From NCBI GenBank assembly GCA_010093605.1, contig MU004197.1:1178001-1242000 (forward strand): DNA of 64,000 nucleotides, written 5' to 3'. This DNA is from Lophium mytilinum (taxonomy: Eukaryota). The position numbers were made by a program, and so were the translations under genes. Of the stretch, positions 249-55,171 are shown piece after piece (the first letter of the stretch is position 1; each line of letters opens with the position of its first letter). The notes beneath the pieces were generated by a model. It was given only the letters and a program-made list of their open reading frames with translations. It did not search any database and was not told the origin of the DNA.

Positions 249-295
249 CACTCCCTTAAGCGTTATATGCTTATTTTGTATATTCTTTTTTGAAT

Positions 296-303
296 AGATA
301 GAG

Positions 304-389
<86 letters not shown>
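296..389. repeat. (GATA)n/(TAGA)n microsatellite inside the copia element
   Basis: About 20 near-perfect GATA units; shorter runs at 414-437, 4580-4720 and in both LTRs. Confidence 0.95.
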
Positions 390-390
<1 letters not shown>

Positions 391-3300
391 ATTTCTTTTT
401 CTTCTTCTTTGCACAGATAGATAGATAGATAGATAGATAAAATCTATATATCTATGTATTTGCGCAATAGAGTTATATCTATATATCTATGTATCTATTT
501 AGTGTCTAATCTCATATAGTCTACTATTTTAGTAAAACTACTTCCCACTAATGGTTTAGTGAATATATTAGTTATTTACTCCTTAGTATTAAGGTAGGCT
601 AGCTTTATTAATCCATTTTAAACATTTTCTCTTACAAAATGATATTATATATCTATATGTTTAGTTTTTGAGTGGTGTTCAGGATTATTAGCTAATTCTA
701 TAGCTGATTAACTATCCGTAAATAGATAGAAGTCTTCTGTATTTTTAATATTAAGTTGTTTTAATATACTTTTTAAGTATATATATTCTTTTATAGTTTC
801 TTTTAAAGCTATATATTTAGCTTCGCAACTAGATAGTGCTATAGATCTCTATAGTTTACTATTCCAGCTAATAGGTGTTTTTCTATAGGAAAAGTAATAT
901 CCTGTAGTAGATTTTCTTCCTATTATATTACCCCCGTAATCTGCATTAGAATAGCCTAATATATATAGTGCAGGATTATTAGGAGAAAATTTAACGCTTA
1001 TTCCTTGCGTAGGCTTATATAATAAGTATTTCCATATCCTTTCTAAGGCTTTAAAGTGAATAGGACTAGGATTAGACATAAAACAAGCGCATAGATTTAC
1101 GCTATAGGCTATATCTAGTCTTATTTTTATAGATAGATAGATAAGACTTCCAACTTATTATTAGTATAGTTTTATATCCTCTTTTAATGCCTGTTTATTG
1201 TTTTTCTCTAGTTTTATACCTATTTCTCCTAGTATAAAGACGGGATTTAGTTTCTCTTTATTAAATCTTTTTAATAGACTTTTTGTATACTTTTTCTAGC
1301 TTAATAATAGGGTTCTTTCCTTTCTATTATATATTATTTCCATGCCTAGAAAATAGGATATAGGCCCTAAGTTTATTAATTCTAAGTCTTTACTTAGTTT
1401 TAATTATAGATTTTCTATATCTTTTATATTTAGGCTAAATACTAATAAATTATCTATGTAGTAGACTATTATTATAGTTTTATTTTTAAATACTGCCTGC
1501 TCTGCAATAGTACTTTTAAAACTGTACTTTTCTAAATATATAGCTAAATGGATATACTATTGTCTAGGGGACTATTTTAAGCCGTATAATGCTTTATTTA
1601 GCTTATAGACTTTATTATTTATATTAAAACCATGTAGTTATTCTATGTATAGTTCTTTATCTAAGTCTATATGCGTAAATGCGTTTTTAAAATCCTATTA
1701 TATTATTTCCTAGTTATAATAAGTAGCTAATACAAGTAATAGCCTATATACTTCTAGGCGGCAGGTATTAGTAAAGGTTTCTTTATAATCTACGCTGTAG
1801 ACTTAGCTAAAACCTTTTACTACCCATCTTGCCTTATATTTAGATATATTATTATCTATATCGGTTTTAATTTTATAAACCCAGCGTCCTTTTAACGCAT
1901 TTCTATTTACTAGTAAGTCTACTAACTTCCAGGTATTTTACTTATTAAGCTAGTCTATTTCTATTTACATAGCTTCTTTCTATTTCTTATTATATAGAGA
2001 TTCTATAGCTTGTTTATACATATTTAGCTCGTTGTTATTATTAATAATAAAGGCTAATTCGTCTTTAGATAGATTATCTATATATGTATTTATAGATAAT
2101 TAAGTTTAGTTTCTATCTATGTATATGTTTAATAATTAATTTTTATCTATATATCTATTTATTAAATTTAGATTTTATATATATCTTTAAATAGATAGAT
2201 TTTTAGATAGTTTTATAGCTAATTTATCTTTAGATAAGCTTTTATCTATAATAGTACTACTTTCGTCTCTAATAGTATTATTACTACTCATTATAGTATT
2301 ATCTATATTTCCATGTTCTTTTAGTAGTTTTATAGCATATTCTATAGAGCTTTCCTTTTTATTTACTTTATTCTTTGTATTTAGAAAGCTTTCTATTATA
2401 GTTATATCTCTTGCCTAGAAAATTTTATTAGTTTCTATATCTAATAATCTATACGCATTTAAACCATAGCCTAATATTATAGCCTTTTTAGCTCTTGGTT
2501 TTAATTTAGTTATTTACGTTTTAACCTTATAAAAAGCTATAGAGCCAAAGATTTTTATATTATCTATTTTAGCTTTTCTTTTATAATATAGCTTAAATAG
2601 CGTTTTATCTTTTAAGCTAGAGTGCAGCGTTCTATTATATATATATATAGCCGCATTTACAGCTTCTCTCTATAGGTTAAAAGGTAAATTAGCTATATAT
2701 AATAGAGCCCTTACTATATTAAATATAGTTAAGTTAATTTACTCTACTAGACCGTTTTGTTCCGGCGTATAGGGGCTTAAGAATTAATGGGTTATACCTG
2801 TTTTTAAAAGAGTTATTTTAAACTTCTTATTTATATATTCTCCCCTATTATTAGTTTTAAAAATTTGTATTTTTCTTTTATCTCCTATATTTATATTTTT
2901 AGCCTTAGCTTTATATTCTAAAAAGGCGTTATAAGCTTTATCTTTAGATTTTAATAGTTTATATTCTATATATCTTAAAGCTGTATCTATAAAGAAGATA
3001 ACATATTTATTACCCCCTAAACTAGGTGGATTTATAGGCCCTGCTAAATCTAAAGAGACTTTTTATAGAGGAATTACTATTTTTAGTATTATTTTCTTAC
3101 TTCTCTTATTTTTTATTATTTTAGCTTTTATACAGGCTTCGCATTAAATAGGCTCTTTTATATTTATACCTAATAGTATACTAAGCTTTCTAGAGCTTAT
3201 ATAGCCTATTCTTTAGTGCTAAATAGATAGATTATTTCTATCTATATATGTATTTGTAAAATCGCTTTTATCTATCTATTTATATATTTAATTTATCTTT

Positions 3301-5225
3301 TTATCTATTTATTTTGTAAAAAGCGTTATATTCTCTATATTTATATAGTATAAAGAGTTTTTAAGTAATACTATTACTAGTATATTATTATTTTTTTATA
3401 TAATAGCTGTTTTATTCTTAAACATAATATTTATTCCTATAGAATCTAGTTTACTTATAGATATTAGATTATATCTAAAGTTAGGAATAAAAAAGCACTT
3501 TTCTAGTATAAATATATTCCCATTTAGTTTTAATTATATATTTCCTACACCTTCTACAGTTGTAGTTTTATTTTCTCCCTAATTTAATATAATAGCTTAC
3601 TTCTTATAACTAGTAAATAGATTTCTATCTACTATTATATAGCTTGTGCTCCCGGAGTCTAATATATAATTAGCTTTGTTATTAGGGGTATAATAGGATG
3701 CTAGAAATACCTTTACTTTAGCTGCATCTAGTTCTATATTAAAATTATCCTATCTAGGGTTAGATTCCTCTATAAGTAAGGATTCTTCCTTCTTATTATT
3801 ATCTTTTAGTGGTTTAAAGTACTCCTTTATTCTAAACTATTTTAGAGCTCTTTCTAGAAATAGATAGAAATAATCTTTTATAAGGTGTGTAGCTATTTTA
3901 CACTTCTTATAGTATTGTTTTTCTATTCTAGTCTTATTGTTAGGTAAGAACTTTTTAGTTCTATTAAATAGAGCCGTTTTGTGCTCTTTAGACTCTTATC
4001 TTCTTGCTTTATCTATTAAATTAAAGATTAAATTATCTAATTTAATATTAGATGAGTTTTCCCTATAGGATTACGTAACCATTATTATAAAGCCATTATA
4101 GGGGTCTGTTAGGTTATTTAAAACCTAGGCTATAATAACTTAATTTAGTAATTTAAGCTTTTTTCGCTTTTAATTAATCTATTAACTATTTTATCTTATT
4201 TAAGTAATCTTCTATAGTTAAAAACTTAGATAAAATAGTATTAAATAGCTTCTTATAAATAAGGAATTTAGAACTAAAGCCCTTTAGGCTATATAGCTTC
4301 TTTAGTAGCTTCTAAGCTTCTATTATAGTAGTAGAATACTATAATTATAATAGAGGACCGTCCTCTATAGTAAGCCTAATAGTGGCTAATGCTTTTATAT
4401 TATTTTCCTTATTAATAGGAATAGTAGTACTGCTAATAGCATTACTACAACTTTTTTCTACTAAGAGAGATTATACTCTTAGAGCCTAAACTTTGTAGTT
4501 AGATTAACCAACTAGCTTAGTAATACTGATTTTATCCATTTTAGATTAAATAGATAGCTAGATAGCCTGTTAGGTAAATAGATAGATAGATAAATAGATG
4601 GATTTCTATATATCTATAGATTTATTAAATAGATAGATTTCTATCTATCTATATATTTGGCGAATAGATAGATAGATAAATTCTATGTATCTATGTATTT
4701 AATGAATAGATAGATAGATAGAAAGAGAAATATTTTAATTTTTAATTAATTTATCTTCTTGTATTAGATAAGATAATAGGATAAAAGGTTATAATCTAAT
4801 CTAGAGTATCCAGATTTAATACGTAATAGATAATAGACGTTAGAAGGTTAATTGCGTGGTTTATAATGTAATATAAGCTTATAGAAGCTTTATAATAGTA
4901 AATATAAATTTCTTTAGTCTGATTTTGTTTATAATAGATTTATAATTCTAGATTGCGTTCTAGCTATTATATGGCGGGCTTATAATTAATAACTTCGTCC
5001 TCTTCTTTAATTTTGGCTTTGTTTTATGCTTAAAACTACTTATACGGTGGTGTAGTAGGTTTATAGGCTAGAGATGGTAATTAAGATAGTAAACGGCGTT
5101 ATTTTCGTCCAATATTTAGTTGATTTAAATAATTTTAGTCGATATTTTATTAATTTTAAGAGGGAACCTGCCTGTTAGTACTATATATAGTTGTAGATTG
5201 CATAGTACAATCCAAGCTTATAACC

Positions 5226-36721: not shown

Positions 36722-38003
36722 ATGGCGGCGCCTACGCGTTTACGGTCGTCTTTTGGGGCGTTGAAGAGGGCGAAGGTATGTGTGCCTTTCCGAACGTATG
36801 ATTGGGGTTATTGCGATGGTTGAGGACAAGTGCTGATGGAGGAGGATTGCAGATTTCACCTCCCCGAACGATACGACAATGCGTTAGATTCAAGAGCGAC
36901 GATGCGGAGGACTCGGAGGGTGGGAGTGGTCCCCGTCGAGGGGTCGAAAGTCCTGAAAATATGGAGGCAGCCGTAGACGAGGCGGTCTCGTAAGGCTCAG
37001 TCAATATGCAGGAGGAGGATGATTTAGCTGATGGATCTTATTAGGCAAATCAAGGAGTTTTCGCGATTCGAGGAGCTGAAGGCGGATCCGAGGTTCAAGG
37101 AACCGAAGACTGAGAAAGAAATGAGGCGGTCCGTACCCTAGATGTCGCATTGATGGGGTTTGGAAGCTGATTGGTACTAGGAAGTGGAAGGAGTTGCAGT
37201 CCGCGCCAGATCACACCAATGTCCTGGAGATGTGGAAAGAAGCTGGTGTAGAGCCAATTGAGCTCGCGAAGTATGCCATGGCAAGAATCAGGATTGAAGC
37301 AGTCAAGCTAACAAAAACTCAGGAAACGCGGTCTCAAGCTTCCTGGGGACGAGAGGCCTCCGTATGTCCTCCTATAGCTCCGTGACGCATCGAGACCACA
37401 TCTCTGATAGACTATAGACTCGACCCCGAAGTCGCCAAACAGCTCTCCGCCCTCCGCGAACCTCGCAACGTCCAAGCCATCCATCTCAACCCCCTCCGCC
37501 GCTCCGCCGAACACGGCGTCCCCGTCTGTGACCTCCAGCTCCGCACCTACAGCATCCGCAATCTCGAGTTCTTCGCTGACTTCGCCATGCGCGCCGCATA
37601 CTACCTCGGTCTCCCCGCCAAGGGCCCCATCCCCCTACCACGCATAACAGAACGGTGGACAGTACCACGAGCCAACTTCGTCTTCAAAAAGAGCCAGGAG
37701 AACTTCGAGCGAATTACCATGAGAAGGCTCATCCAGATCCAAGACGGACATCCGGAGGTCGTGCAAGCGTGGCTAGCGTTTTTGGCGAAGCATCAGTACT
37801 ATGGTGTTGGTATGAAGGCGAATGTGTTCCAATTTGAGGCGCTAGGGGAGCAACATGAGGGGCCAGAGATAGTAGGAAAGGTTGATACGAGCAAGCAAGA
37901 TCCAAAAATGATGAAGAAGGTGGAGGAGCTGCTAAATCAGGATCAGTTTAAGAAAGCTTTCGCGCAAGCGAGGGCGGAGAAGGCGCCGGAAGTGAGCGCA
38001 TGA
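36722..38003 (+). CDS. RSM10: Mitochondrial small-subunit ribosomal protein uS10m
   Basis: Arg-rich presequence; CDLQLRTYSIRNLEFFADFAMRAAYYLGLPAKGPIPLPR...KKSQENFERIT; several introns. Confidence 0.9.
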
Positions 38004-38482
38004 CGGGGGAGCATAACGTGTGTAAACTGTATGTATATGTATAGGTTGCTGGATTGCATATCTGGCGTATGTAAACTCTTTAGATCTATTGGGAAGCCCA
38101 CAATCCATGTTTACAGCACGGTGCTATCCCACAGTCTCCGGTCACTTGCTCAGTGCACCCAAAGGAACGCCAACTTCAGTCCTACGCAGCTCTTACTTGG
38201 CACCCTTAGCGTGGCCCTGTCTCTGTGATAAATGATGTTGAGCAACTCTACCATGAAGTGTATCACGTGACCTATAAGCACTACTTTTAGACCCCCTGCC
38301 TATAATAGTACGGCTGAAGAACGACGCGTATCCGCCCCACGGACTAATGAGCGGAGCCAACTCTATGGGGAAACAAGAGCTTTTGAACTGATCCCACTTC
38401 CATTCCAGCTGTAATACATCTGATATGGGCATTTCAAGAACCGCACACCACATTCTCTTTTGTGAGCTGCTGTATTGCTGAC

Positions 38483-40163
38483 ATGGTCGGTGTAGCCCGT
38501 AGCAAGGGCTGTCGCGCATGCGTCAAACAACGGGTGAAGGTGCGTTCATTGTCTCAACTTTTCGATTTCTGCTTACGTCTCACTCTTTACTTCAAGTGCG
38601 ATGAGGCGAGGCCAGAATGCGGCCGCTGCAAGAGGTTCGGAAGAGAGTGTCCAGGGTACACCAAGCCCACGAAGTTCGTATATGAAATCCCAATAGCAAA
38701 AGACAAGCAGAAAGTTGGCGAAGGGTCTTTCAGACACATCCGTGAACTCGAACGCCCGAGTCCAAAAAGCCAGAGCCAAAGCCGTAGCCCTAGTTGGTCT
38801 GCTCGAACGACACCAGAGTATCAGGCTTCGAGGGGTTCGTCGGAGGTGGCGACGCCGCTCGTCATTTCACAGTCAATCACTCCTTGGACCCAGGATAAAT
38901 CTCAAGTACTGAAAGTCATGCTTGACGATGCGACTCCAATGGATGAGTTCGCCGACATCCATTTCCTGCGGAAGTGGCTATCATTCGTCCCCTCGCGCTT
39001 AGGTACGAGCAAAGCGCTAGACGACGCGGTCCGGTGTATGGGGACCCATTATATCGGTATGATTTCGAAACAAGAATCTGTTATGTTGTCTGCTAGGCAA
39101 ACGTATGGTCATGCTTTACGCAGTCTTCGAGTAGCAATCGGGGATCCTAAGGAATCGATGTCGTCTGAGACGCTCTGCGGTAATCTTACCTCCCCGAAAA
39201 TCGATATACAACGACTAACGTATGAAAGCTACCATGTTCTTGAGCATCTATGAGGTTAGTACGCTCTGTCTTCCTCTTGCCTTTATCTAATCCTTTTCTG
39301 TATCTAGTTATTTGCTTGCACAAAGAAACATGCATGGGTAAAGCATGCAGGAGGCGCCAGCAAATTATTACAGCTCCGTGGCCCTGATCACATCACCTCA
39401 GGCTTCGATCGTGCAATGCTCTCTTTTTTCCGAGGCCAAGTTGTAGGTTACAATTCCTTACTCTCCCTGATTCATCTTCTAACAGTATTAGACCATGGAA
39501 GCTTTCATGAGAGGGACAGACTCATTTTTGTGCCAGCCTGAATGGCAATTCGTGCTCTCAGACCCTGATCCCAACAATCCCAGCCCCGTCAGCCGCATTA
39601 CCAACGAGTTCCATGCATATCTAGCTACGTGTCCTGGCATCGCCGCCCGGTTCCGTAGTCTTGATCGGAAAAATATGAGCTTAGTGGTTTCGCTCCTCAA
39701 CACAACTTCAGAACTATCCATTGCTCTCCGCGCTTGGTTCATTCGGTTCAGAGAACTCCTTCCACCACCCACGGAAGTGCCCTCCGACCCTTACGACCCT
39801 CTATATCCCACCACCTACCTATTCCGTGGCGCTCCAAACATCTTCTGCACAGCATCTTACTATGGATGTCTCATATTACTCAATTCCATGACCCATGACC
39901 TGCAGCCCGAAGAAAGTCTTGCTATCGAAAACAAATACCTTGTAGACGAGATCTGCAAGTCTGCAGACTTTTCTTTCGACGCGGGGCTATTAGGGCCATA
40001 TAGCACCATCTTCGCGCTGAAAATGGCGTTTATGGTCGCCGAGTTGCCAATAAAGCTTTGGATACAGAAACGCCTGCTGAAGATGGGCGAAATCATGCCG
40101 TTCATGAAGTACCAAGTCTCGCTGGAAACAGATATGGTGCTTGATAATGATCTGGAAACCTGA
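38483..40163 (+). CDS. Zn(II)2Cys6 fungal transcription factor
   Basis: MVGVARSKGCRACVKQRVK|CDEARPECGRCKRFGRECPGY; C-terminal fungal TF region (LRVAIGDP...ETLC, WVKHAGGA..LLQLRGP); about four introns. Confidence 0.88.
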
Positions 40164-40189
40164 GTACTGTCTCATCTTGAGCTCCGGAA

Positions 40190-41612
40190 ATCAAGTCTTG
40201 TCTTGATTCTCGAACAACCCACGGCGGACTCCTGACGGTGTCACCCAGGTGGCAAATAGGGAGTATCGAAGGCCCAATTGAGACCCTTCCGATATTATAT
40301 TCTGAGAAAGATCCAGTCTGATCTATGGAGGACTCCTGACGGCGTCAAGAAAGCGGAATTGAGCCATAAGTCCTAGGCTCCGTGTTAGACCGTCTGGAAA
40401 TCACATTCCATCCACGATCTAGGACGACTACTAGAGGCCCCCCGACAGCGTTGCCCAGGCCCGAAACCGACATATGCGTCGAAGGTCCAATTCCGGCCGT
40501 CTGGAAACTACATCCTATTCACAATCTAGGACGATCTCTATGGCCCCCCTGACGGCATCAAGAGGCTAGAAAGTGAGGACTATTTCGCGACCTCTGTTCT
40601 ACACTTTGCAGTCCTTGACATCGCTTTTTGATCTCAATCAACCCAAGAGAGGACCCCTGACGGGGGCAAGACGCTGCTAACATTGGGCTTTCTCGCAGGG
40701 TCCAATTCACCGGTTGCAGTCCATTACATCGCCGTCCAATAATTCTGATACGCTGGAGGACTTCAGACGGCGTCAGGCACGAGGAAACATGACATTGCTG
40801 CTAGATTCTCTCGGCACCTTAGAGGACTTCAGACGGTGTCACCCGCCTAACAAAACGTAAACGAACATCGTCTAATTCGCGACACCCCCGAGATTCACAC
40901 GAAATGAAGCTTAAGGAGAGGCAGCGTCTGATTCGCGCGTCGCGGTTTATGACATTGCTGTTCGGATTTTCTCGACCTGTTAGGGGACTTCTGACAGCGG
41001 CAAGGCATTGGAAAAGGCTCACTATTTCGCCGCATCTAATTCACGAACTGCGATCTATGACATCGCTCCCCATTTTTCTTGCCTATTTGAGGGACTTCAG
41101 ACGGTGGCAGCCAGATATCAAAACACACGCGAACATTGTTCAAGGTACGACCTGCACGCTTTTCGTGCAAAGTTCCGGCTTAGGGAAATGCAGTGTCTGA
41201 TTCGCACATCGTGATTCTTGACATCGCTGCGCGAAATTTTCGCCTGCTCGGAGGACTTCAGACGGTGCCAGCCAGATGTCAAAATGGGCACGAACATCGT
41301 TCAAGTTAGGGGAGACACGAGATGCATGCAAGATTCTAGCTTCTAACATCGCTCCTAAAATCTTTCGCCTCCTCAAAGGGCTTCAGACGGTGTCAACCAC
41401 CCCAAACAAGCCGCAATCAACCTAATGCGATCTGAACCACCCAAACTTTAACATCCTATCTCTTATTTACTTACACCGCTAAAAGACTTTAGACGGTATC
41501 AACCACCCCCTAAACCCGCTTAAATCAGCCCAATCCAATCTGAACTACTCGAAATTTGACATCCTATCCCACATTTTTTGGCATCGCCAAAGGACTTCAG
41601 ACGGTGTCAGCC
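40190..41612. repeat. Diverged non-coding tandem array; 13 copies of core GGAC(T/C)(T/C)C(A/T)GACGG(T/C)GTCA at ~107-bp period
   Basis: Cores start near 40226, 40330, 40436, 40543, 40651, 40758, 40824, 40985, 41092, 41253, 41378, 41484 and 41592; an ACAT(C/T) box lies 32-33 bp upstream of nearly every core. Confidence 0.85.
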
Positions 41613-41883
41613 CTGTTGCAAACAGCAGATGCGAAGGATGTAAAACAAACAGGCACAGCATAGCAACCACACAATCACGAACAGTAGTCAGAAAAGGTGG
41701 AACTTGTGTTCATATCAGCAATCACGGGCACCATTAGGCCCCCCAATCCGTCCCCTAAACTACTCCAAATAGTCCCGAAAGAGGCCACCCACTTAGGCCT
41801 AAACTACCCCCAAAACTCCAAGTTAAGCCGAAAGACTCCCCTCCACCTAGTCGCTTCTGCCCCTTCTTCTCCCCTAAGCGTCC

Positions 41884-43026
41884 TCACTCTTGTGGGAAAT
41901 GCTCCTGCCAGCGAGGGTAGACGTGCGCACGCGGAGCCGGCGAAATGGTGACATGTTTACCATCACGGCCCACGGAGCGTCGGACGTTTGCGTTGAAAGA
42001 AGTCGCGGAAGCCTCCACCCTTTCGCCAGAAGAATCACCAGAAGCCTCCACCCTTTCGCTAGAAGAAGGACTAGATCTACCGGAAACGTCGTACCATTCG
42101 CGATAAGAAGCAGCGGGAGTGGTTGGCAGTCCGTATAAAGAGGCAGAGATTTCGGGCGCGTGACGTGCATTAAAGTCGACAAGTTCGACGGAAGAGTCCC
42201 CTTCCTCACCCCTCCTTGTCCTGAAAAAGCTACCGAGACGGTTATACTGCGGTCGGTGCGCGTGGTTGCTTGTGGGAGAAGTGTTGCCATATGAGCGCGG
42301 AGTCTGGGTGTTTCTGGGCGTTGTTTCGACGTTTTGCTTGCGGATACGGCACAGCGTCCATACGAGAAGGCCGGAAACAAGGAGAAGAAGGAACGAAATG
42401 ACCCCCAGAGCGATGGCCAACTGGGTGCCCAGCCGGTTCAAAGAATGGTCGAAAGCGGGCGACGGGTCCTGGGTCTTTGTTGGGATGATGGAGCAGGAGG
42501 GGTCACCCGTTGGGGACGCGATGGAGCTTAGAACGGACGGAAGAGCCTGGGCCGTGGTCGAAATAAGTGACGAAAGAGCTTGGGTGGCGTAGCTAGAAGA
42601 AGTCGTTTTAGTGCCGAGAGAGGTGGTTTGAACGCACACAGTGGCCAGATGATCTGCCATGAGAGGGAGGTCGGACGGGCAGGCGGTGGCTCCGCATTCG
42701 AGGACGTACTGGGTCAAGTCATGGCGCCTTTTGCAGAAACAAGCCGTGGAAGAGACCTCGCACCCTAGAGAAAGAAGCACACCTTTGACGAAGCAGTCGG
42801 CCTAAGAGGGTGAAGTTAGCGACAAAGGCTCTACGTTTACGCGTCTGGAAGTACTTACAGCGCAGTTCGGGTGGACGCTTGTGGCGATAGCAGTCACAAT
42901 CTTGGTGACGAAGTGGGTGGACGTGATGGTGACACGCTTAGCGGCGTTGGTAGACGCTGCGTCGGACGTGGAGGCTACAAGAAGGGCGATTAGTGACATG
43001 AAGACGCCAAGCATCGTGAGCTTCAT
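41884..43026 (-). CDS. CFEM-like domain single-pass membrane protein
   Basis: Signal peptide; PNCA|ADCF...GC....ACFC...CGATAC...VC cysteine pattern; S/T-rich stalk; TM segment LAIALGVISFLLLLVSGLLVWTL followed by CRIRK; intron 42802-42858. Confidence 0.72.
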
Positions 43027-43723
43027 CTTGAAAAAGTGTCAGATGATGCACGGTTAGTGGAGCAGCAGAGCCCAGGCGACGTTGGCAACAGCGACGGTGA
43101 CAACAAGCAGATGAAGCGGTTGGAGAGACCAGAGTTCGTGATGGTGATGGCGACGACGTGTGGTGTAGAAGAGCAGAGGACGTGGTCCGTCAAGGTGAAG
43201 AAGAAGGAACAATTGCCAGGCCACGTGCTTCACGTGGCGCGATTACGGCACGCTCTGGGGAAGAATTGTGCGTCATAGCCCGAGAGTGAAGGGAGATGCA
43301 CTGAAAGAGGGCCAGGCTGCGTGATCTCGTCGTCGCGATGGGGGTACAGAGAGGGAGATTGATCTAGCCAGTGAGGTAACCCTGGAAGGGTAGCTTTCGA
43401 GCCTTTTGGCCTTAAAAAGAACCGTCAGCATGTTCATATCATCACCCCTTCAAATCGCGCGTACCTTTTTGAGATTCTGCAGGGTGGGTAGCGCTTCTGA
43501 GGGTCTCCTGGCCATTGTGGAAGTAGAGGCACCAGGATGTCAAATTCTACACCCTCCGAATCGGGCGCCGACTGGTAGGGTTCTGTGATGGAATGTCAGT
43601 TTCTCATCATGTTCATATTGAATGCATCTCGTCAGAATCTTGCGACGGTGGTGGCCGTCTTGAAGGGCTCCTAGGCACTGCGAAGGGAAGAGATTTAGGA
43701 TGTCACATACCGCACTCTCTACA

Positions 43724-45927
43724 TCACCGTTCATACCTCGTCGCACTCACATAATCCTTCTGGGGCCCCTTAACATCATACCTCACCTCCCACCACCCTT
43801 CCTTCCCAAGCCCAAATCGATACCTCGCACTATACAGATCCTTTCCACATAGATGACTTTCCCGTCCTTCAAATCGCAGCTCTTTCACTTCTGATTTGAT
43901 GAGCCTCTCATGGCCGGCTTCCTCCCCCGGACGCTGCGTTGCTTTCATTTGTAAATCCAAGAACAGACCAGTGACGGGCGGCTCGGGGACTTTCGTAGCT
44001 TCTTCGACGAAGAACACACTCATGGTGTCGGTAGTGGGAGCGTAGCGGTAAGCGTATTTCTTTGTTGCAGGGAACTCGAGCCCCGTGGGGAGTTTGAAGG
44101 TGCCCAATTCTTCATAGAGGTATTCATGGGAGAAGGATGGAGAGGAAGGTGGACGCGACGTGAAGGTAGCGGTGCCGGTGAAGGTACCTGAGGGGTGCGT
44201 GGGAAGGGCTGAAGTGAGAGTACGGGATGTTGACCATGGGCCAACGAGAGAGAGGAAGAGACGGAGTGTTGAGGTGGGTTCTGGAGGCGACTTTGGTGTG
44301 CCGGAGATTTGAAGGGTTGAGAGGTCCGGGGGGGCAGCCGAATTTGAAGAAAAGGGGCGGATTAGGAAAGAATTTATGGATTGGAGGGTCGCACGGGAAG
44401 GATTGGCAGTCGGGTAGGAGGTCGTTATCCAACTGAACCGTTGGCGGATGAACGATTTGTCGATAGCATGGCTGAGTGGTTTGGGCGAGATTACTCCTTT
44501 GAGAATAGATCAGTACGACAACGAAAGATTTGAATGAGGGGGATGACCTATACCATTGTCGTCTACAAAGAGGCAGAGAATAGTTAAAGCTACACCAAGA
44601 GAAAGATCTTTCCCCGTGGTACAGCGGACGAGTATTCTGCCAGGATCCTCTTTCATGTTCAGAAAGAACCCCTCAAGCTTTGGGAGTTCGTCTCGAAGGT
44701 CTCGGCTACCTAACTTACCCGAACGGCACTTCAGGTTGAGGTGTCTGGGTTTCTTGCCAGACTGAGTAGCTGGAGGAGTGTCCAGTCCACAGCTTATGAC
44801 GGTATCGAAATCGTCGGGAGTTGCGCCTGGAAGTGGGCCAACATAGAGCGAGGAGGTTGGCTTGATCAAGATGACGTCCGAGGGCATAGAGGCGCCCGCG
44901 CTCTTCAACAGTTCCTCGATAACATCGGGAAGGTCTTCCTCGTTCGTAGCAAGCAATCTGCTCTGATTGCTCCAGAATAGCGGAGGGGTGAGTCCGCACG
45001 ACCACCCTTCACTATCATCACCAGCACCTTGGATATATCCTCCCTCTGAGACCTCGCCGCCCCTGACTCGCCGAGAGGCTGTACAGAGAACGACAGGGTG
45101 AAAATCAGGGAATGAGGGAGGCGTTGGAGGAAGCGAGGATTCCCGCGTTACCCAGAGGGGACGAAGAGGCTTCGAAATTTTCGATCGAAGGGCGGCAATC
45201 TCGAGATTTAGATTCTAGTCATCACTGTCAGTGGCTTGAACATACTCTAACCTATCGTGCGGGCTAAATTACCTGGAGCTGCTGGACGAAGCCATCCAGA
45301 CGAGCTTCGATCTGAGAATGCTCAGACTCTGATATGGATTGGCGTGGTGTGCATAACGCATGCGCAGTCAATTCTGGAAATAGAACCCTGTTCAGCACGC
45401 AACACCAAATTGGCACGGTCTTGAGCAAGGCATCCGGCATGCCTGCTAGAGTCAGCCTTCTCCTATGATAGTTGGATTACAGAGAGGAAATTGAGATGGA
45501 CCTACTTTTGCCTCTCCTAGTTGAGTCTACCACAATGCATCTACAATATTCAGTCTTCTGTTGACCTTATATAACAGTGATGAAAAGCCTACCCGTCGTT
45601 CTTTCCAATAACATCCAGGACTTGAGTGTTCAGCCTTCTCAGACTAAAAGCCCACTGTCCGGTATGGCCGTCGGTGCTCTTGAAATACGCACTCTCGGCT
45701 TTGCGGCTGGGAGGGATATACCAGCTACCACATCTCTCATTCGCTACCAGTGGTAGCTTATACGCATCTGCAACCGCACACACAAACTCAGTATCTTGAG
45801 TGATTGAGTTCAGACGATTGGAGATAGACAGAGCTGAGCGTTTCAAGGATGACAACGTCTCCGAGAAATTTGTAGAGAGAGCTGGGAAAATGATATCGGA
45901 AGTTTTCAGGGCGGGGACGGCCGACAT
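43724..45927 (-). CDS. RIT1: Initiator tRNA A64 2'-O-ribosylphosphate transferase with a C-terminal DUF6314-like extension
   Basis: PLVANERCGSWY, YFKSTDGHTGQW.FSLRRLN, CIVVDSTRRGK-MPDALLKTVPIWC, GKDLSLGVAL, ANPSRATLQSINSFL; the frame stays open to 43724. Confidence 0.9.
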
Positions 45928-48001: not shown

Positions 48002-49980
48002 ATGGGAGCATCCCCGTCTATGAACCGGCGAACCTCAACTCCTCCTTTGTCAGAAGCCTTGACGATTGACGACGACCCGGACATCTCGACCTCCCTCCAC
48101 GACCGATTCTTTGCCTTCTCACGCGCCATGTCTGGCAACTTCGACTTCCCGCCGGCCTCGGATTCCCCGCTGGCTGCCCAAGCATCCATAGATAGCTCCA
48201 CGCTGCCTGGACGCCTGCAGCACCTCCGCCAGACCTTGCAACGCGACCGGGAGCGCGAGATCGCTGCCCGGGAGACGGCCGCCAACGAGCGCGAGCGCCA
48301 GAATGTGACAGTTGAAGTAGCAATGCCTTCACGGCGCTCTCGTGCGCGGCGGGGTCGAGCTCGGAACACAGAATCTGAAGACAGGGCTGCCCGCGAGAGA
48401 TCTCATCCCGCTCGTCTGGCCCCTTCGTCGTCTACCACACCCAGACCCAGGACCCGTGCCGTGCCTGGAGAGCGCTTCCAAAGCATGCGTCGTACGCGAA
48501 TGCAGCGAGAGCAGATGAACGACATGGCCGCCCTCGACGAGGCTACCGAGCGCCTTGCCTCAGTTAATTCCAATCTGGTTGACCTCCTCACGCCGCCGCT
48601 GTTGTCTCTCGGTACTCTCGGGAGTGGCAGCCGGAGGAGCCCGCCCGGAGAGCCTGATGGGCTTCTACGGCGCCCAAAGAGGAGGAAGCTAGAACATGAG
48701 AGTGAGGGCCTTTCTTTCGCGAACCCCAAGTACGGCCACTTTGGGCAGGTCGTGCCCGGGCGGTTGCGGATGGAGATCGTGAGCTGCGACGGAGGACAAT
48801 ATACCGAGGAATCTTCTTCAGCGCTTTACAGGCCCGAGAATGTGTTGAAGAATGATAGGAGTGTCTACTGCACCAAGAGCTCTCGATGCAACCTGCTGCT
48901 CAAGCATCAAGGCGAGACGACCTTCTGCTTAGAGAAGGTGGTCATAAAGGCTCCGGAACGTGGTTTCACGGCTCCGTACGTATCAGCCAGGTCTTGGCCA
49001 TGATTTTACTAATCTCCGTGATAGCATCCAAGAGGGCATGATCTTTGTCTCCATGGAGTCCGATGAACTCCTTAGCGGCACTGCCGGGTACCAGATCGAT
49101 TACAATAACAAGTCTGGCCTCCATTCATCTAACTCCTCCGCTAGCTCCCAAGACGAAGAAGAGATATCCCTCGCGGAGAGTCTCACAGATCCCGCGGTAT
49201 GGGCGGCTTCCCGTCTCGGTCGCGCCGAAGCTCTCGACCAGGAACGCGACTATGTAGAGATGCAGCACCAGCGGCTTCGATGGCAGCGTTCTCGTCGCCG
49301 GCTTCATGACGAACTCATGCATGAAGAACCCCGCCCACCTACCCGCCACGACTCTCCCTCAAACGCCACTATAAACATGGCCGACAACTGTGACTGGCCC
49401 GTAGCCGACTCAACCCACAGCTCTGCGGGCGTATCCGCTCCTACCCCACCCCCCTTCACCGTGACGACCGAGAGCGACGGCGACTCTAGCGAAGACGAGC
49501 AGCCCAGTGCCGCCGTCCTGAGAGACCGCTTACATCGCGACAGCCAATGGCGCGTAGACACTGACGATGAAGAAGACGCCGCCCGCGCAGCCTTCTGGGA
49601 GCCCCGTGATGGCCGCTTCGGCAGTTCTGGGTATCTCCGAGCAACACGACGCAGCACACCCAGTCGTATCGAGCCCAAAGACGCGTCGCCTGAAGCCGAC
49701 GGTTTGATCCCGCCGCATGCGAGATTCTTCATTGCGAAGCACAAGAACAAGATCACGGTCAAGTTTGACCCGCCAGTGTAAGCCCCATGCCCCGATCTCC
49801 CTTTCCTCCCCTGCCCGACTCCTTACCTACAAATGCTAAATTTCGCTGCTTTCCAGCTCTGGAAAGTTCGTGTTGCTGAAGCTCTGGAGCCCACAGCACA
49901 ACGGCAACATCGACATCGAGAGCGTGCTGTTCCACGGCTATTCTGGCCCGCGGTACTTCCCCTCGTGCCAGATGCGGTAG
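48002..49980 (+). CDS. Conserved-looking fungal hypothetical protein
   Basis: ORFs 48002-49003 and 48960-49781 joined by GT-AG introns. Globular blocks RMEIVSCDGG...ENVLKNDRSVYCT...KAPERGFTAP|IQEGMIFVS and KFDPPV|SGKFVLLKLWS...NIDIESV..GYSGPRYFP. Start codon uncertain. Confidence 0.75.
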
Positions 49981-50220
49981 CTTGACTTATGTAACTGCTT
50001 GGACACCACGGTAGACACAAAGTCAGGGTTGGCTTGATTGATATTAGCAGGTGCAGCATTGCCAGCACAAAGAGCGTGCTCTTCCTCGACTACTCTGGCC
50101 CGAGGTACTTCCCCTCGTACCAGATGCGGTAGCTGAACTCATGTAATTGTTTGGACATCACGATAGACCCAGAGTCAGTGTTGGCTTATTTGATGTTAGC
50201 GGGTGCAGCATAGCCAGCAC
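49919..50220 (+). repeat. Two-copy 152-bp tandem duplication of the gene's last ~20 codons and 3' UTR
   Basis: 49919-50068 aligns with 50071-50220 (AGAGCGTGCT...GCCAGCAC) with scattered substitutions. Confidence 0.9.
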
Positions 50221-50532
50221 GAATAATGAAAACCTAATTCACGATTGATGTCACTATTGAAATGCCAAGCACAAATTGATCGAATCTCTAACATTTTCAG
50301 CTAACTCCACTAGTCTCCTCACCACAGCGCTCATATCCAGCGCCAGCGCTCCGGGTATCATATATAATCGTGAATCATGCTCCACAGGCCCCCTATCCCT
50401 CATTCCATTGAGGGCAAAGGAAAATCACACACAGGCTACATCCCCGCTACTCTGCCCACTATCCCCCTTTCCATGGGGGGCAAAAAGAAATCACACCCGC
50501 TACATCCCCAATACTCTGCCCCAACCCCTCTC

Positions 50533-53500
50533 CTACAACTCAATAGCATCCTCCGCACTCGTACCCGCCTTTCCACCAAAACCCTCCCCATTCCCAAAAG
50601 CCGAACCAGACCCAGATCCCGACCCCGATCCCGAATTCTCGGGGCGCTCAAACCCCTCTTCGAACTCCTCGTCACTCGCCCACTCCATCTCCTCCCCGCC
50701 CTCACCCTCGTAGTACCCTCCGCTGTACTCGTCGCTATACTGCCCGCTCCCATAACTGCCCATCTCCTGCTCGGCCTCGTCTTCGGAATCGACAAAGAAC
50801 TCCGGCGTCGGCGCCTCCTCCGGTTCCGGCTTCGCGTCCGCCTCCTTCATCTTCCCCTTGCCCTTATCCTTCCTCCCCAGCCCAGAGGCGCGCAGCGCAG
50901 CGACGCCCTTGCCGTACAGCTCGCGCGGTACGAAGCGGCTGACGCGGCCGTAAAACGCCGGCTTGGGCGCCTCGGCCATCTTCCTCGCGGCGGTGGTGGT
51001 CTTCGCGACACCGTTGAGGACCGGTTTCTTCTGCTGGTGGTGCTGCTTCTTGGTGGCGTCGAGCGGCGACGTCTTTTTCTGCGCGGATGCCGAGCGCGAG
51101 CGGCTGAGCTGCGCCAGAGTCTCGCGGTAGAACTGCTCCGTCTCGTCGAACTCGGCGTAGATGCGCACGACGCTGGCGGCCATGGGGTCGGTGCGCGCCG
51201 CTTTGATCAGGTCCTCGGGCGCGGATTGGCGCCGGCCGCGACGCGCCGCCGCGGCGAGGTAGTTGTCGATTGGTGAGGCGTTACGGGCCGGGCGGCTGAG
51301 GCGGTCCATGATGGCCGTGATGCGGGCGTTGCGCTCCTCGTCCGTCTTGGGGGGTTGGGAGTAGCGGAAGCGGGCTCGTGCGGCGTCGTCGAAGAGAGCT
51401 GGGGGGCTGTATTGCGGGATGCGGGATGCTTGGAACCGCTTCGGCGGGCTGGCGGGTTGGCTGCCTGCTGAGGTGTCCGTGTCTGTCTCCGCGGCCCTGC
51501 TGCGCTTGCCGGTAGCTGGCTTGCTGCTCTTTGATTTGGTATACCCAGAACTCTTCATCCGGAAGTATTCCGACTGAGTTGCGTCACGGACCTCTTCCTT
51601 GCGAGGCCTAGCATCGGCTTGGTACGATGCGCGCAAGGAACTGGAATTGGAGCCAGTAGAAGCTCGTGATGCCTCCGCAGCTGTTCCTGATTGTGACTGT
51701 GTATGACCATGAGCGCTCTTACGCACAGGCTTGCAAGTAGAGCATAAACAGTTGGGACATACAGAGTGTCCGTTGACGTTGGAGCCATTCTTGTTTGAGA
51801 TCCCGTTCGTTTGTCCAGCTTCAACCGTGCTGCCTTGTGAGGTAGGCCTGTCGCGCTTTGAACGCCGCGATTTCGGAGGAGGCATGGTGCCATTCGAGGA
51901 GGAAGGGATATTGGTGACATCATTGAGAGGAGTCGCCATTGAAGCTCTCTTGATCTTTGCGCGACGTTCGGCTCCGCGACGGATCACCTTCTTCTTGTAG
52001 GCATTCTCCCACCATAGTCGGCCATATTTGTCTGCAAGCTTCAAGGTGCGGAACTTTACTGCTTCCTGAAGCGCTTTTTCTTCCTCGAATTTCTTCATCT
52101 CTTCAATGATAATGCCCTCCATGAAGTGTTCGCGGAACTGCTTCAGGATGCCATTAGCCTCGTCCATGACCAGTTCTTCTGCGAAAACATCCAAGGCTCG
52201 ATCTCTTTCGGCCTGGACTGATTCTTTTCCGGGAACGAGTTGTGTGGGGACTTCTAATGGCGCCGCAGGCTGCACAAAACTCGTAGCGGGCTGCTCCGGT
52301 TCCTGATGCTGTGGAATCGGCATTGGAACTGGCGGTGCCGCTGGAGGTGTCGTGAACGTCCACGATGGGGCCGCTGGCTGTGCAAAACTCGTAGCGGGCT
52401 GCTGCGGTTCCTGATGCTGTGGAACTGGCATTGGAACTGGCGGTGCTGCTGGAGGTGGTGTGAATGTCCACGATGGGGCCGCTGGCTGTGCAAGACTCGT
52501 ACGGTGCTGCTCCGGTTCATGCTGCTGTGGAATTGGCATTGGAAACAGCGGTGCTGCAGGGAGAGGTGTGGAGGCTTCCGCCGGCGCCACTGGCTGTGCA
52601 AAGCTCGTACGATGCTGCTCCGGTTCATGCTGCTGTGGAATTGGCATTGGAAACAGAGGTACTGCTGGAAGCGTTGTGGGGGCTTCCGCCGGCGCCGCTG
52701 GCTGTGCAAAGCTCATACGGTGCTGCTCCGGTTCATGATGCGATGGAGTAGGCATTGGCGGTGGTGCTGGAAATGGTGACGGCGTCCACGACGGAGTTGA
52801 TGCTGGGACAAAGCTCGTTGCGGGCTGTACAGGTTTCAGTGGCACGAAGGGGAATCCGGCAGGCTTTTCCGGGGCTCCAAAAGGAGCGGCAGTAGCAGAC
52901 GAAATAGACGGCTGTCCGAAGGTTGCCCAACCAGACGCTGTATTTGGCGTAGCAGTAGCAGGAGGCGGGAAAAGTGGTCCGCCTAGGCGTAGCTTTGGAG
53001 TTACTTTTGGGGAGTCCAGGGGTACTGGAACGGTTCCAAATGAGATGCCGACAGCAGGGGCAGGGGCAGTCGGCGTAATAGATGGCGTTCCAAATGGGAT
53101 GGCGACAGCAGGGGCAGTAGGCGTAGTAGACTGCGTTCCCAGAGACTCTGATCGAGCCAGAAACCTGTTGATGTCATTCTTGTCCGAAGAGGCTCGTCGC
53201 TGTACGAGGGGCTCAGAATCGACTTCGTCGGATTCTTCGTCTGAGCCAACGAACAGCGACTTGTCTTCGTTCAAAACTTCTTCTTCTAAATTCTCAGTTA
53301 GTACATGATCCGAATACATTAGATTGGAATTCTGCGCTTCTAGGACCGACAAACCCTGTATGATTGCTGAAGCCTTCCTCAACTCTCTCCTCTTTCCAGC
53401 TTGCCTTCCACGCATCTGGGGTGGAAGCCCTCCTGGGGTTTCCAGTGAGCGGTTTCCGATAGATGATGGATCGACAAACTCCGAAGTGCCATCAGCAGTT

Positions 53501-55171
53501 TTACAGATTTTGAATCCGTAAGTCACACAGAGCGCCCGAACCTGTCTCAGGTCATCCAATCCAAGTATCTTTCCCATCTCTTCCAGCGTCCAATCTTCCG
53601 GACGCTTCTTTCCGCCCTGCTTGAACCCTCTAACGAAGGACTTCAGGACCATATCCCGGATGGGCATGGCGCAGATTTCCGCGGTAGCTACCATAAGGAA
53701 CGAGTACGCGTCGGAGTTGAGTTCTGACCAGAAGTCTGCCCAGTCGTCGCGGGCGAAAGATGGTTTCCTAGGGGGTTGCAGCGGGCCAATCTTCTTGGTG
53801 CCTTTCAGCCCGGCATTGTAGATGTCGACAGCTTTTCTAACCCTCTTGTCATTGACAATGTGGAAAGGCCACGTCGAGATATGGTCCTCGATATTGGGTA
53901 CCGGGGTCTTCATGCATAGGATTACCTGGTAGGCGCGGAATTCAGCTTCGTGTGGAGACTGATAGCTTTTGCCCCGGTTATCGCTGTAGTAGGCATCCAG
54001 TGACAACAGCGTCTTGTCCATCTGTTCGTAATCCTGAGCCCAAGAGTAGTCTGAAGCGTCGTTGTCGTCGCCTGACATCTCGTGCATGGACAAAATATGA
54101 AATCGAACGATTTGTTCGAAACATTCGATAGCGATCTTCACATCTTCATCTCTCGTGACTTGCTGGATAGAGAAGTCGTTGCGGACAGCACGAGTCCTGT
54201 CCCAGATGAAGGTCTGTACGTCTTTCAACTTGAAGTCGCTGAGGAGCGAGCAAAATAGGTAGTCGAGTGTCTGCTTGAGAACCGTGGGAGGGCGAAGATC
54301 AGAAGGTAGCTGTTCCTCATTCCCAGCAGCCGAACGCCTGAACTTCTTGACCATGCGGTACTCGTCGAAAACTCGCGCAGAGCGGCCGAAGAGCAAGCTC
54401 AGCGGTTCGTTCTCGTGGGCGTGGACATCGTTCTGGACGATCCGCTGCACTCGCTCAAACTCCGGACACATATCCCGACACTCTCCAACGAGGGTGATGG
54501 CATCCTTAAGGCTCCTGGGCTTCTCGGGGTCTTGCATTTTACCGGTGGCGATGTAATTGCGGCGCATCTTTTCGCGCTGTTCCCTTAGCTATAGCGCGGG
54601 CGCGATTGTTAGCAGCAGGCCCCTCACTCGGAGAGGTGAGGAGGATGCAGCTCACCTTTTCCCATCGCTTGTCCATGCCGTTCCTCTGCTTCAAGGCTAG
54701 GTCAATGAAAGACCTCTCTTCTCCCGAAATCGTGCTATCATTGAGCCGTTTCTCCAATGCTTCAGCGACGAAAGACCTTCCTTCGCCCGAGGTCATCTCA
54801 CTTCCTAGTTCCGTGGCGTCGGTAGTATAAGCAGCTTGTCTTGAGTCCTCGTCGGTATCCGTCATTCGCCAGCCCTCGTCAGCCTCCGCAGTCGATGATC
54901 TTGACCTCGTCTGATTGCGGCGGCCGTTCCACTGGGTATCGCGATTCTTGTTCTTGCGTGGATCACGTTGATTTCTTGAGTTTGAAGCCGGTCCAGTAGG
55001 TGCATTCGAACCACCGCGGGCTTTTCCGCCTCCGTTGACTCGCTGCGACCGGGGGCCTGATGGCGGCGGCATCGTGTTCGCTCCATCTCCTTTCGGGGCT
55101 CGGAAATTGTTCGTAGAACGGTCGTCACTCCGCGACGCGTTCGAGCTTCCTCCTCCGCGGTCTCCTCTCAT
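50533..55171 (-). CDS. SAC3: SAC3/GANP domain mRNA export factor (TREX-2 scaffold)
   Basis: LVGECRDMCPEFER, MVKKFRRSAAG...LPSDLRP, FIWDRTRAVRNDFSIQ, EAEFRAY; one intron near 54588-54655. Confidence 0.9.
52250..52760 (-). repeat. Coding minisatellite in SAC3 (about five 34-35 aa units PMPIPQ.(H/Q)EPEQ..TSFAQPAAP)
   Basis: Repeats visible in both DNA and translation of ORF 50533-54567. Confidence 0.9.

Follow-up and report, generated by a model that had tools for sequence, protein, structure and literature searches.

The stretch of DNA analyzed here is a 64,000-nt window of the Lophium mytilinum contig MU004197.1 (assembly GCA_010093605.1). It carries a gene for a Zn2Cys6 factor, a convergent gene for a Ser/Thr-rich membrane protein and, occupying most of the 1.7-kb gap between the 3' ends of these two genes, a tandem array of 13 short repeat units. 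The units of the array are strongly diverged but share an 18-nt core that has been kept far better than the sequence around it. In addition, related arrays were found at several loci of the same genome, and the array was found to be covered by RNA contigs.

Thirteen diverged units with a conserved core

A repeat finder, a fuzzy search with the 18-nt core and the extraction of individual units agreed on 13 units, all in the + orientation, within about 1.4 kb (Table 1). An earlier note on this DNA, made from the letters alone, had given the spacings of successive cores as 104, 106, 107, 108, 107, 66, 161, 107, 161, 125, 106 and 108 bp, and these values proved to be exact. An nhmmer profile of an 80-nt module, which reaches from an upstream box A to 16 nt past the core, recovered the same 13 sites, all on the + strand, with E values of 9e-17 to 2e-06. 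The same profile identified no other site better than E 0.09 in the rest of the 64-kb window, and blastn of the array against the remainder of the window gave no match. The units are thus co-oriented, answer to one profile and can be aligned through box A, linker and core, as head-to-tail units from one ancestor. Tandem Repeats Finder detected the final 2.2 units only, with 74% matches, which indicates that the array is strongly diverged. The two 161-bp units (units 8 and 10) had been described as alike, and they are (67% identity overall, 76% over a 62-nt stretch); they fit a higher-order repeat of 268 bp.

The finer description of the motifs given in the earlier note held in part. The ACAT box said to lie 32-33 nt before the core is present in units 3-13 (11 of the 13), across which it is invariant when the units are aligned, but it is missing from units 1 and 2. 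The palindrome TGAC-N3-GTCA, reported for several cores, has its full form in only two of the 13, with the shorter form GAC-N3-GTC in four further cores. CGG does occupy its canonical position in most cores (11/13), and an A-run about 11-13 nt past the core forms a weak third feature. The array has no long open reading frame (ORF), the longest stop-to-stop frame being 125 aa, and no signature of repeat-induced point mutation, as had also been claimed (GC 0.50, TpA/ApT 0.62, (CpA+TpG)/(ApC+GpT) 1.17, observed/expected CpG 1.02); CpG depletion was likewise not seen. The four large length changes all fall in a 48-nt part of the unit and none in the 28-nt linker, for which the probability by chance is about 0.16. 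The fixed distance between box A and the core is a weak sign of selection.

Conservation was quantified by aligning the segments of the units pairwise, for all 78 unit pairs, and comparing the results with shuffles. The mean pairwise identity of the core (18 nt) was 0.75, against 0.45 in the shuffles, while the values for the linker (28 nt; 0.54 against 0.48), the box A window (12 nt; 0.51 against 0.43) and the post-core segment (40 nt; 0.51 against 0.47) were much closer to those of shuffled sequence. Even where linker and post-core identities both fell below 0.5 (11 unit pairs), the core was still 0.75 identical. A likelihood analysis with separate partitions, run on the last 107 nt of every unit, returned relative rates of 0.26 (core) and 1.16 (remainder), such that the core has changed about 4.4 times more slowly (lnL -1410.0 with separate rates versus -1440.1 with a single rate; likelihood-ratio statistic 60, 1 df). 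This difference in rate rejects uniform neutral decay, the outcome that would have undone the claim that the boxes are conserved beyond the linkers.

Neighboring units are also similar in their linkers (units 3 and 4 at 0.79, units 10 and 11 at 0.79), and in the unit tree the units fall into three groups of neighbors, (1,2,(3,4)), (5,6,7,8,9,10,11) and (12,13). This shared similarity indicates that the spacers are of common descent, and it excludes an acquisition model of the kind known from clustered regularly interspaced short palindromic repeats (CRISPR). The likeness to a CRISPR repeat-spacer memory was therefore rightly called superficial: the alternation of a conserved box with variable sequence agrees with it in layout alone, whereas here homology links one spacer to another, the repeats have diverged (core identity 0.75), the host is a eukaryote, the neighboring genes are of housekeeping type and there is no cas-like gene among the window ORFs scanned. 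We consider the probability of such a memory to be practically negligible.

A more serious alternative is that the array is a decaying minisatellite free of selection, in which short-tract conversion or unequal exchange, starting from the palindromic core, homogenises the core. Consistent with this idea, GAC-N3-GTC or a longer palindrome is found in 6 of the 13 cores, and the units of 66, 125 and 161 bp together with the higher-order duplication point to past exchanges. The closest units within the array are 57-75% alike, and in the closest pair of all, units 12 and 13, the core (15/18) has fared little better than the unit as a whole (75%). In the array of a clam miniature inverted-repeat transposable element (MITE), a palindrome close to the unit junction has likewise been proposed as a hotspot (PMC3879986). 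However, conversion tracts limited to about 18 nt in every unit would be unusually short. Moreover, the core variants have not been homogenised, with cores on the left of the array carrying CCTGAC and those on the right TTCAGAC, and the retention of these variants resembles descent with constraint and not concerted evolution. On balance we regard this explanation as unlikely.

The earlier note had also suggested that the array might be a multi-unit precursor of small RNAs. Such a polycistronic precursor, of snoRNA-like, hairpin or milRNA-like RNAs or of Pol III genes, drew some initial plausibility from box A (TGACATCG), which is nearly the reverse complement of the 3' half of the core; on the + strand all 11 of the 11 units have a U-G at the same position. 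The + strand modules had a mean folding z of about -1.0, with four of 11 below -2.4, compared to about -0.1 on the - strand, and one pair of the box A/core helix showed double C-G to U-A changes (units 3 and 8). Nevertheless, the structures differed among units and RNAalifold found 0 consensus pairs in the aligned modules. In the box A/core helix 76% of the cells were paired versus 75% in shuffles, five of the eight pairs departed only by broken pairs, and the double changes lie at CpG sites, with 93 of 500 shuffles reaching their count. An Rfam search of 38000-44000 at E values up to 10 gave two matches, both outside the array, and ARAGORN found no tRNA in the array. In addition, there are no consistent C/D boxes, as the strand of CUGA varies between units, T-runs of at least 5 occur in three units only, and an RNA contig is continuous over 40699-42800. 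Together, these data make a small-RNA precursor highly improbable.

The inverted repeat formed by box A and the core is best read as inherited from the ancestral unit. An inverted partial core (CCGTCTGA, at most 1 mismatch) occurs four times on the + strand of the array, where the remainder of the window predicts about 0.6. The four lie at inherited positions, in units 2, 3, 4 and 8 only, and are not family-wide. These fragments support the same reading as an ancestral feature, and their positions hint at a longer inverted repeat in the ancestral unit.

Two other structural candidates were set aside. Ribozymes, including those of the hammerhead type, had no Rfam match. Long-range pairing of a core with box A of the next unit was unsupported either way, the two U-A double changes fitting only the short hairpin.

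Dispersed relatives, transcription and neighboring genes

To place the array in its genome we used contigs of a genome run (X2), in which 24 contig pieces aligned to the array region and the single-copy depth was 164. Nineteen of the 24 pieces were less than 95% alike to the array (five at 90-95%, 14 below 90%), and these paralogous pieces, 80-95% alike and located on separate contigs, were collinear with it over more than one unit. The summed depth, 164 at base, reached 930 at 41126-41282 and 917 at 41440-41596. The collinear stretches span unit boundaries and are 80-90% alike, compared to 57-75% among the closest units of the array. As the paralogues are nearer to the array than its units are to one another, the units had diverged before the array was dispersed. 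Joints that step back 74 nt with 34 other letters between them amount to a unit of 108 nt, which indicates that another locus is also an array of 108-nt period. At core 12, the paralogous contigs have the consensus letter at both 41484 and 41490.

The copies share an ordered array of several units, and at least one paralogous locus also shares part of a non-repeat flank, continuing past unit 13 with 69 nt skipped. A joint from 41622 to 41692 was found in the 24,286-nt contig, and the depth in the bin 41597-41753 was 369.5 against the base of 164. The earlier note had named a match to the subterminal repeats of a known transposon as a finding that would speak against a selected array. This objection applies in part: the array matches none of the known elements, yet its collinear copies at dispersed sites point to a mobile or duplicative carrier. 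The genome run, the RNA run described below (X1) and a third run (X3) were the only near-identical ones, sharing 0.99 of the sampled words, and the two that were aligned, X1 and X2, show the same array.

The C-/A-rich right flank at 41720-41880 has small direct repeats of its own (CCTAAACTAC..., 44 bp apart). This flank is similar to the beginnings of units 12 and 13, also C-rich, and may represent additional repeat sequence that has decayed.

A scan of metagenomes with a degenerate core pattern yielded 80 loci with a single match each. None of the 80 had a second core at up to 4 mismatches, a loose ACAT-type box stood at the right distance in three, and the blastn likeness covered the core only (19-31 nt). 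Such isolated core-only matches indicate that these loci are chance matches and not relatives. Separately, a peat metagenome run (X4) held a 151-nt contig identical to 41589-41738, and an air metagenome run (X5) a 248-nt contig with about 95% likeness to 41657-41867, which is lost to the left of 41657. With one short contig each, mostly to the right of the array, these two runs are uninformative on arrays in relatives.

Transcription was studied with run X1, which is indexed only as guessed RNA, by aligning its contigs to 38300-43000. The contigs skip the four GT..AG introns of the Zn2Cys6 gene, in which the depth is zero, and the bin depths equal the zero-intron prediction exactly (e.g., 72.8 x 100/157 = 46.4 in a bin with a 57-nt intron). 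The zero depth in all four introns indicates that X1 is RNA without detectable DNA. Transcripts over the array, whose absence the earlier note had counted as a possible objection, do exist, as the X1 contigs cover the array fully. One contig is unbroken from the last coding exon of the Zn2Cys6 gene to 40573, which places units 1-4 in the 3' untranslated region (3'UTR) of the Zn2Cys6 mRNA. A 6,595-nt contig beginning at 40699 contains the remaining array and the downstream gene. Units 7-13 are accordingly present in RNA, although X1 contigs carry no strand and either strand is possible there.

Between these two contigs lies a genuine + strand intron within the array, with a joint from 40572 to 40699 and a CTAAC branch site 18 nt before its end. 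The spliced form had a depth of 32.8 and the retained form 56.2, so both forms are found in RNA. As the intron begins 410 nt past the Zn2Cys6 stop codon, it could expose the Zn2Cys6 mRNA to nonsense-mediated decay. A micro-exon gene, in which the core would be the exon and the linker the intron, was ruled out, as the RNA contig over 40699-42800 is unspliced.

Paralogous copies are transcribed too: four of the nine pieces aligned from the RNA run were less than 90% alike, and one was at a depth of 321. One paralogous transcript, with a loose end before 40752, has an ACAT box 33 nt before its core and a different linker. This spacing indicates that the geometry of the two boxes is a trait of the family.

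These observations bear on the idea that the array acts at the level of the host, as a multivalent docking platform on which the core and the ACAT box recruit many copies of one RNA- or DNA-binding protein. Such a platform, in the 3'UTR or in read-through RNA, would tune the stability or location of the Zn2Cys6 mRNA, or titrate the factor, by analogy with NORAD or the Xist A-repeat. The constraint on the core is consistent with this idea, as are the full coverage of the array by contigs of a clean RNA run, the continuity of units 1-4 with a coding exon, the + strand GT..AG intron inside the array, the paralogous copies in RNA and the slightly better folding of the + strand modules than of their shuffles. 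On the other hand, the core matched no known motif and the binding partner is hypothetical, the RNA contigs are strandless over units 7-13, and in a compact genome a 3' intergenic insert may be transcribed incidentally. We consider a host-level platform to be possible, if doubtful.

The Zn2Cys6 gene itself, which the earlier note had placed next to the array, is real. A Pfam Zn_clus domain lies in the frame 38387-39253, and the last exon is 100% identical to a 490-aa hypothetical protein of Lophium mytilinum (Dothideomycetes) with PF00172 and PF11951. The protein is 81% identical to one from Mytilinidion resinicola. The stop codon occupies 40161-40163, 63 nt ahead of the first core. On the other side of the array, the convergent membrane-protein gene has an intron at 42801-42857 that is spliced on the - strand in RNA contigs. 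Because the array lies between convergent genes, no promoter faces it.

This arrangement weighs heavily on the proposal, also made in the earlier note, that the array binds the adjacent Zn2Cys6 factor. The array does adjoin the gene and it has CGG at one fixed position in 11 of its 13 cores, an arrangement that recalls Gal4 upstream activating sequences, in which CGG-N11-CCG sites lie upstream of target genes. In contrast to those sites, the array lies 3' of the gene, where there is no promoter for it to act on, the cores have one CGG each and lack paired CGG/CCG half-sites at fixed spacing, and the family is found at other loci too. We therefore give this proposal a very slim chance, and removing so tempting a link as unsupported holds whichever other explanation of the array is correct.

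The remaining window contains ordinary housekeeping genes, among them genes for mitochondrial-type ribosomal S10, Rit1, ThiF, SAC3/GANP and RIX1. At 43724-45214 (- strand), Rit1-type initiator-tRNA phosphoribosyl-transferase domains (Rit1_C, Init_tRNA_PT) are followed by DUF6314 in an adjoining frame, which may represent a fusion of the domains or, alternatively, two exons that belong to the same gene. A second tandem repeat with a 108-bp period (52257-52758; 4.6 copies, 85% matches) is coding and unrelated to the array; it specifies a 36-residue Pro/Ala-rich repeat in a 1351-aa minus-strand ORF with a SAC3/GANP domain. A 152-bp unit is present twice at 49919-50220 (86% matches), between the ORFs 48948-49781 and 50533-54588. 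The left end of the window (294-4723) is AT-rich and of low complexity, with (ATAG)24 and several TA-rich 21-42-bp repeats, and the rest has 50% GC.

Table 1. Features at the array locus, in window positions. The paralogous matches, given by the part of the array that they align to, are separate contigs at single-copy depth.
Feature	Position	Strand	Details
Zn2Cys6 gene, last coding exon and stop codon	39492..40163	+	Pfam, protein match, RNA contig
Tandem array, 13 diverged units	40190..41612	+	basic unit ~107 bp; variants 66, 125, 161 bp
Core 1	40226..40243	+	without ACAT box upstream
Core 2	40330..40347	+	without ACAT box upstream
Core 3	40436..40453	+	degenerate; CAG replaces CGG
Core 4	40543..40561	+	degenerate; 1 extra base
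Spliced 126-nt intron in array	40573..40698	+	5' GTGAGG, CTAAC 40677-40681, 3' CAG
Core 5	40651..40668	+	within spliced intron
Core 6	40758..40775	+	core search
Core 7	40824..40841	+	equals consensus; 66-bp unit
Core 8	40985..41002	+	161-bp unit
Core 9	41092..41109	+	core search
Core 10	41253..41270	+	161-bp unit; most repeated part in genome run X2
Core 11	41378..41395	+	125-bp unit
Core 12	41484..41501	+	3 departures from consensus
Core 13	41592..41609	+	equals consensus
Non-array right flank shared with at least 1 paralogous locus	41612..41729	+	69-nt gap; likeness ends ~41729
Convergent downstream gene, Ser/Thr-rich single-pass membrane protein	41884..42801	-	ORF; weak sub-threshold CFEM-like start
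Match, 31,865-nt contig	41415-41609		195 nt, 22 differences; 89%
Match, 24,286-nt contig	41443-41622		180 nt, 27 differences; 85%
Match, 7,496-nt contig	41473-41609		137 nt, 27 differences; 80%
Match, 192-nt contig	41218-41342		125 nt, 13 differences
Match, 309-nt contig	41073-41246		174 nt, 34 differences
Match, 424-nt contig	40590-40744		155 nt, 27 differences

Probable origin of the array and possible role of its core

The array arose by amplification of one ancestral unit of about 107 bp, after which the copies diverged until their linkers were near-random, and the array, its units already diverged, was later copied to or from other loci, either whole or in large blocks. Based on this history, our preferred interpretation, to which we assign a probability of roughly 0.4, is that the array is an old, ordered member of a mobile or similarly duplicative repeat family, and that its quasi-palindromic core is the family's own cis site. 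The carrier of the copies would be a mobile element or a similar duplicative process. The core may be a cis-acting site at which a sequence-specific DNA-binding protein docks, or a palindromic start of exchanges within the array, and a role of this kind would explain why the core has been retained. The position of the array beside the Zn2Cys6 gene, and in its 3'UTR, would then be incidental.

Several results weigh against this interpretation. The locus yielded no element ends, target-site duplication or transposase, and an inverted-repeat scan around the array revealed no terminal pair. Similarly, no transposon-type Pfam domain was identified in any of the window ORFs scanned, which were 26 of the 27 listed of at least 220 aa (50374-51276 was left out). 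Units 1-3 have no copy of at least 80% elsewhere, the depth in X2 being flat at 164 from 40184 to 40497. With regard to the core, the partition used in the likelihood analysis was delimited after inspection of the data, although the effect is large nonetheless, and its slow change is as compatible with localised gene conversion as with host-level selection.

A bolder reading, which we consider decidedly unlikely, would make the whole family one of transcribed docking arrays, in which the core and the ACAT box 32-33 nt away from it recruit many copies of one protein to RNA or DNA. If true, 3'UTR-embedded arrays would be a regulatory device of a fungal lineage, acting in this case on a transcription-factor mRNA that also has a partly retained intron in its 3'UTR, and would represent a fungal counterpart of NORAD-type platforms. 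More generally, if the core is a docking site, the family would be a ready-made multi-copy bait for its binding protein and a test case for the effects of 3'UTR repeats on a regulator mRNA.

Comparison with known repeat systems

To our knowledge, short euchromatic repeat arrays with one strongly kept box have rarely been described in fungi. Neither the motif nor the family was found described in the literature searched, which covered fungal core-sharing minisatellites, ascomycete box-and-spacer repeats, the core sequence and the species. TGACA may resemble binding sites of TALE homeodomains, and GACGG those of Myb or the Ac transposase.

Among minisatellites and satellites, a conserved core or box is seen in the Jeffreys-type minisatellites with their shared core and in satellites with CENP-B-box-like segments, and such conserved segments have been proposed as protein-binding or recombination signals. 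The family described here is similar in that many loci share a short core within variable tandem units. It differs in that the array is a 1.4-kb euchromatic one in a transcribed 3' region.

The Xist A-repeat is a comparable row of transcribed repeats. A further precedent is the long noncoding RNA NORAD with its repeat units (10.1101/033423, PMC4947167, PMC8192489). Like these systems, the present array is a row of old duplicated units that is transcribed, and its short boxes have been kept as the spacers decayed. In contrast to them, the family here is multi-locus and its binding protein is hypothetical, and the resemblance is one of possible mechanism and not of membership.

The closest parallels to our preferred interpretation, in which the array belongs to a mobile or similarly duplicative family, are the tandem-repeat-containing MITEs of molluscs and insects and the short satellite arrays linked to Helitrons (DTC84, pearl-type; PMC3879986, PMC5139131). 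In one of these MITEs the repeat variants are ordered and a palindrome lies close to the junction of the units (PMC3879986). These systems differ from ours in several respects: terminal inverted repeats, a target-site duplication or Helitron ends were not identified here, our host is fungal, its units have diverged much further, such that only the 18-nt core and a small second box survive, and the copy number looks low, with tens of contig pieces and not thousands. They are alike in that short arrays are scattered through the genome, with units of about 100-170 bp, a fixed order of variants and a palindrome near the junction, and in that some non-repeat flank is common to the copies. Should the family prove to be transposon-borne, it would provide a fungal example of the link from transposon to satellite, which has so far come mostly from animals.

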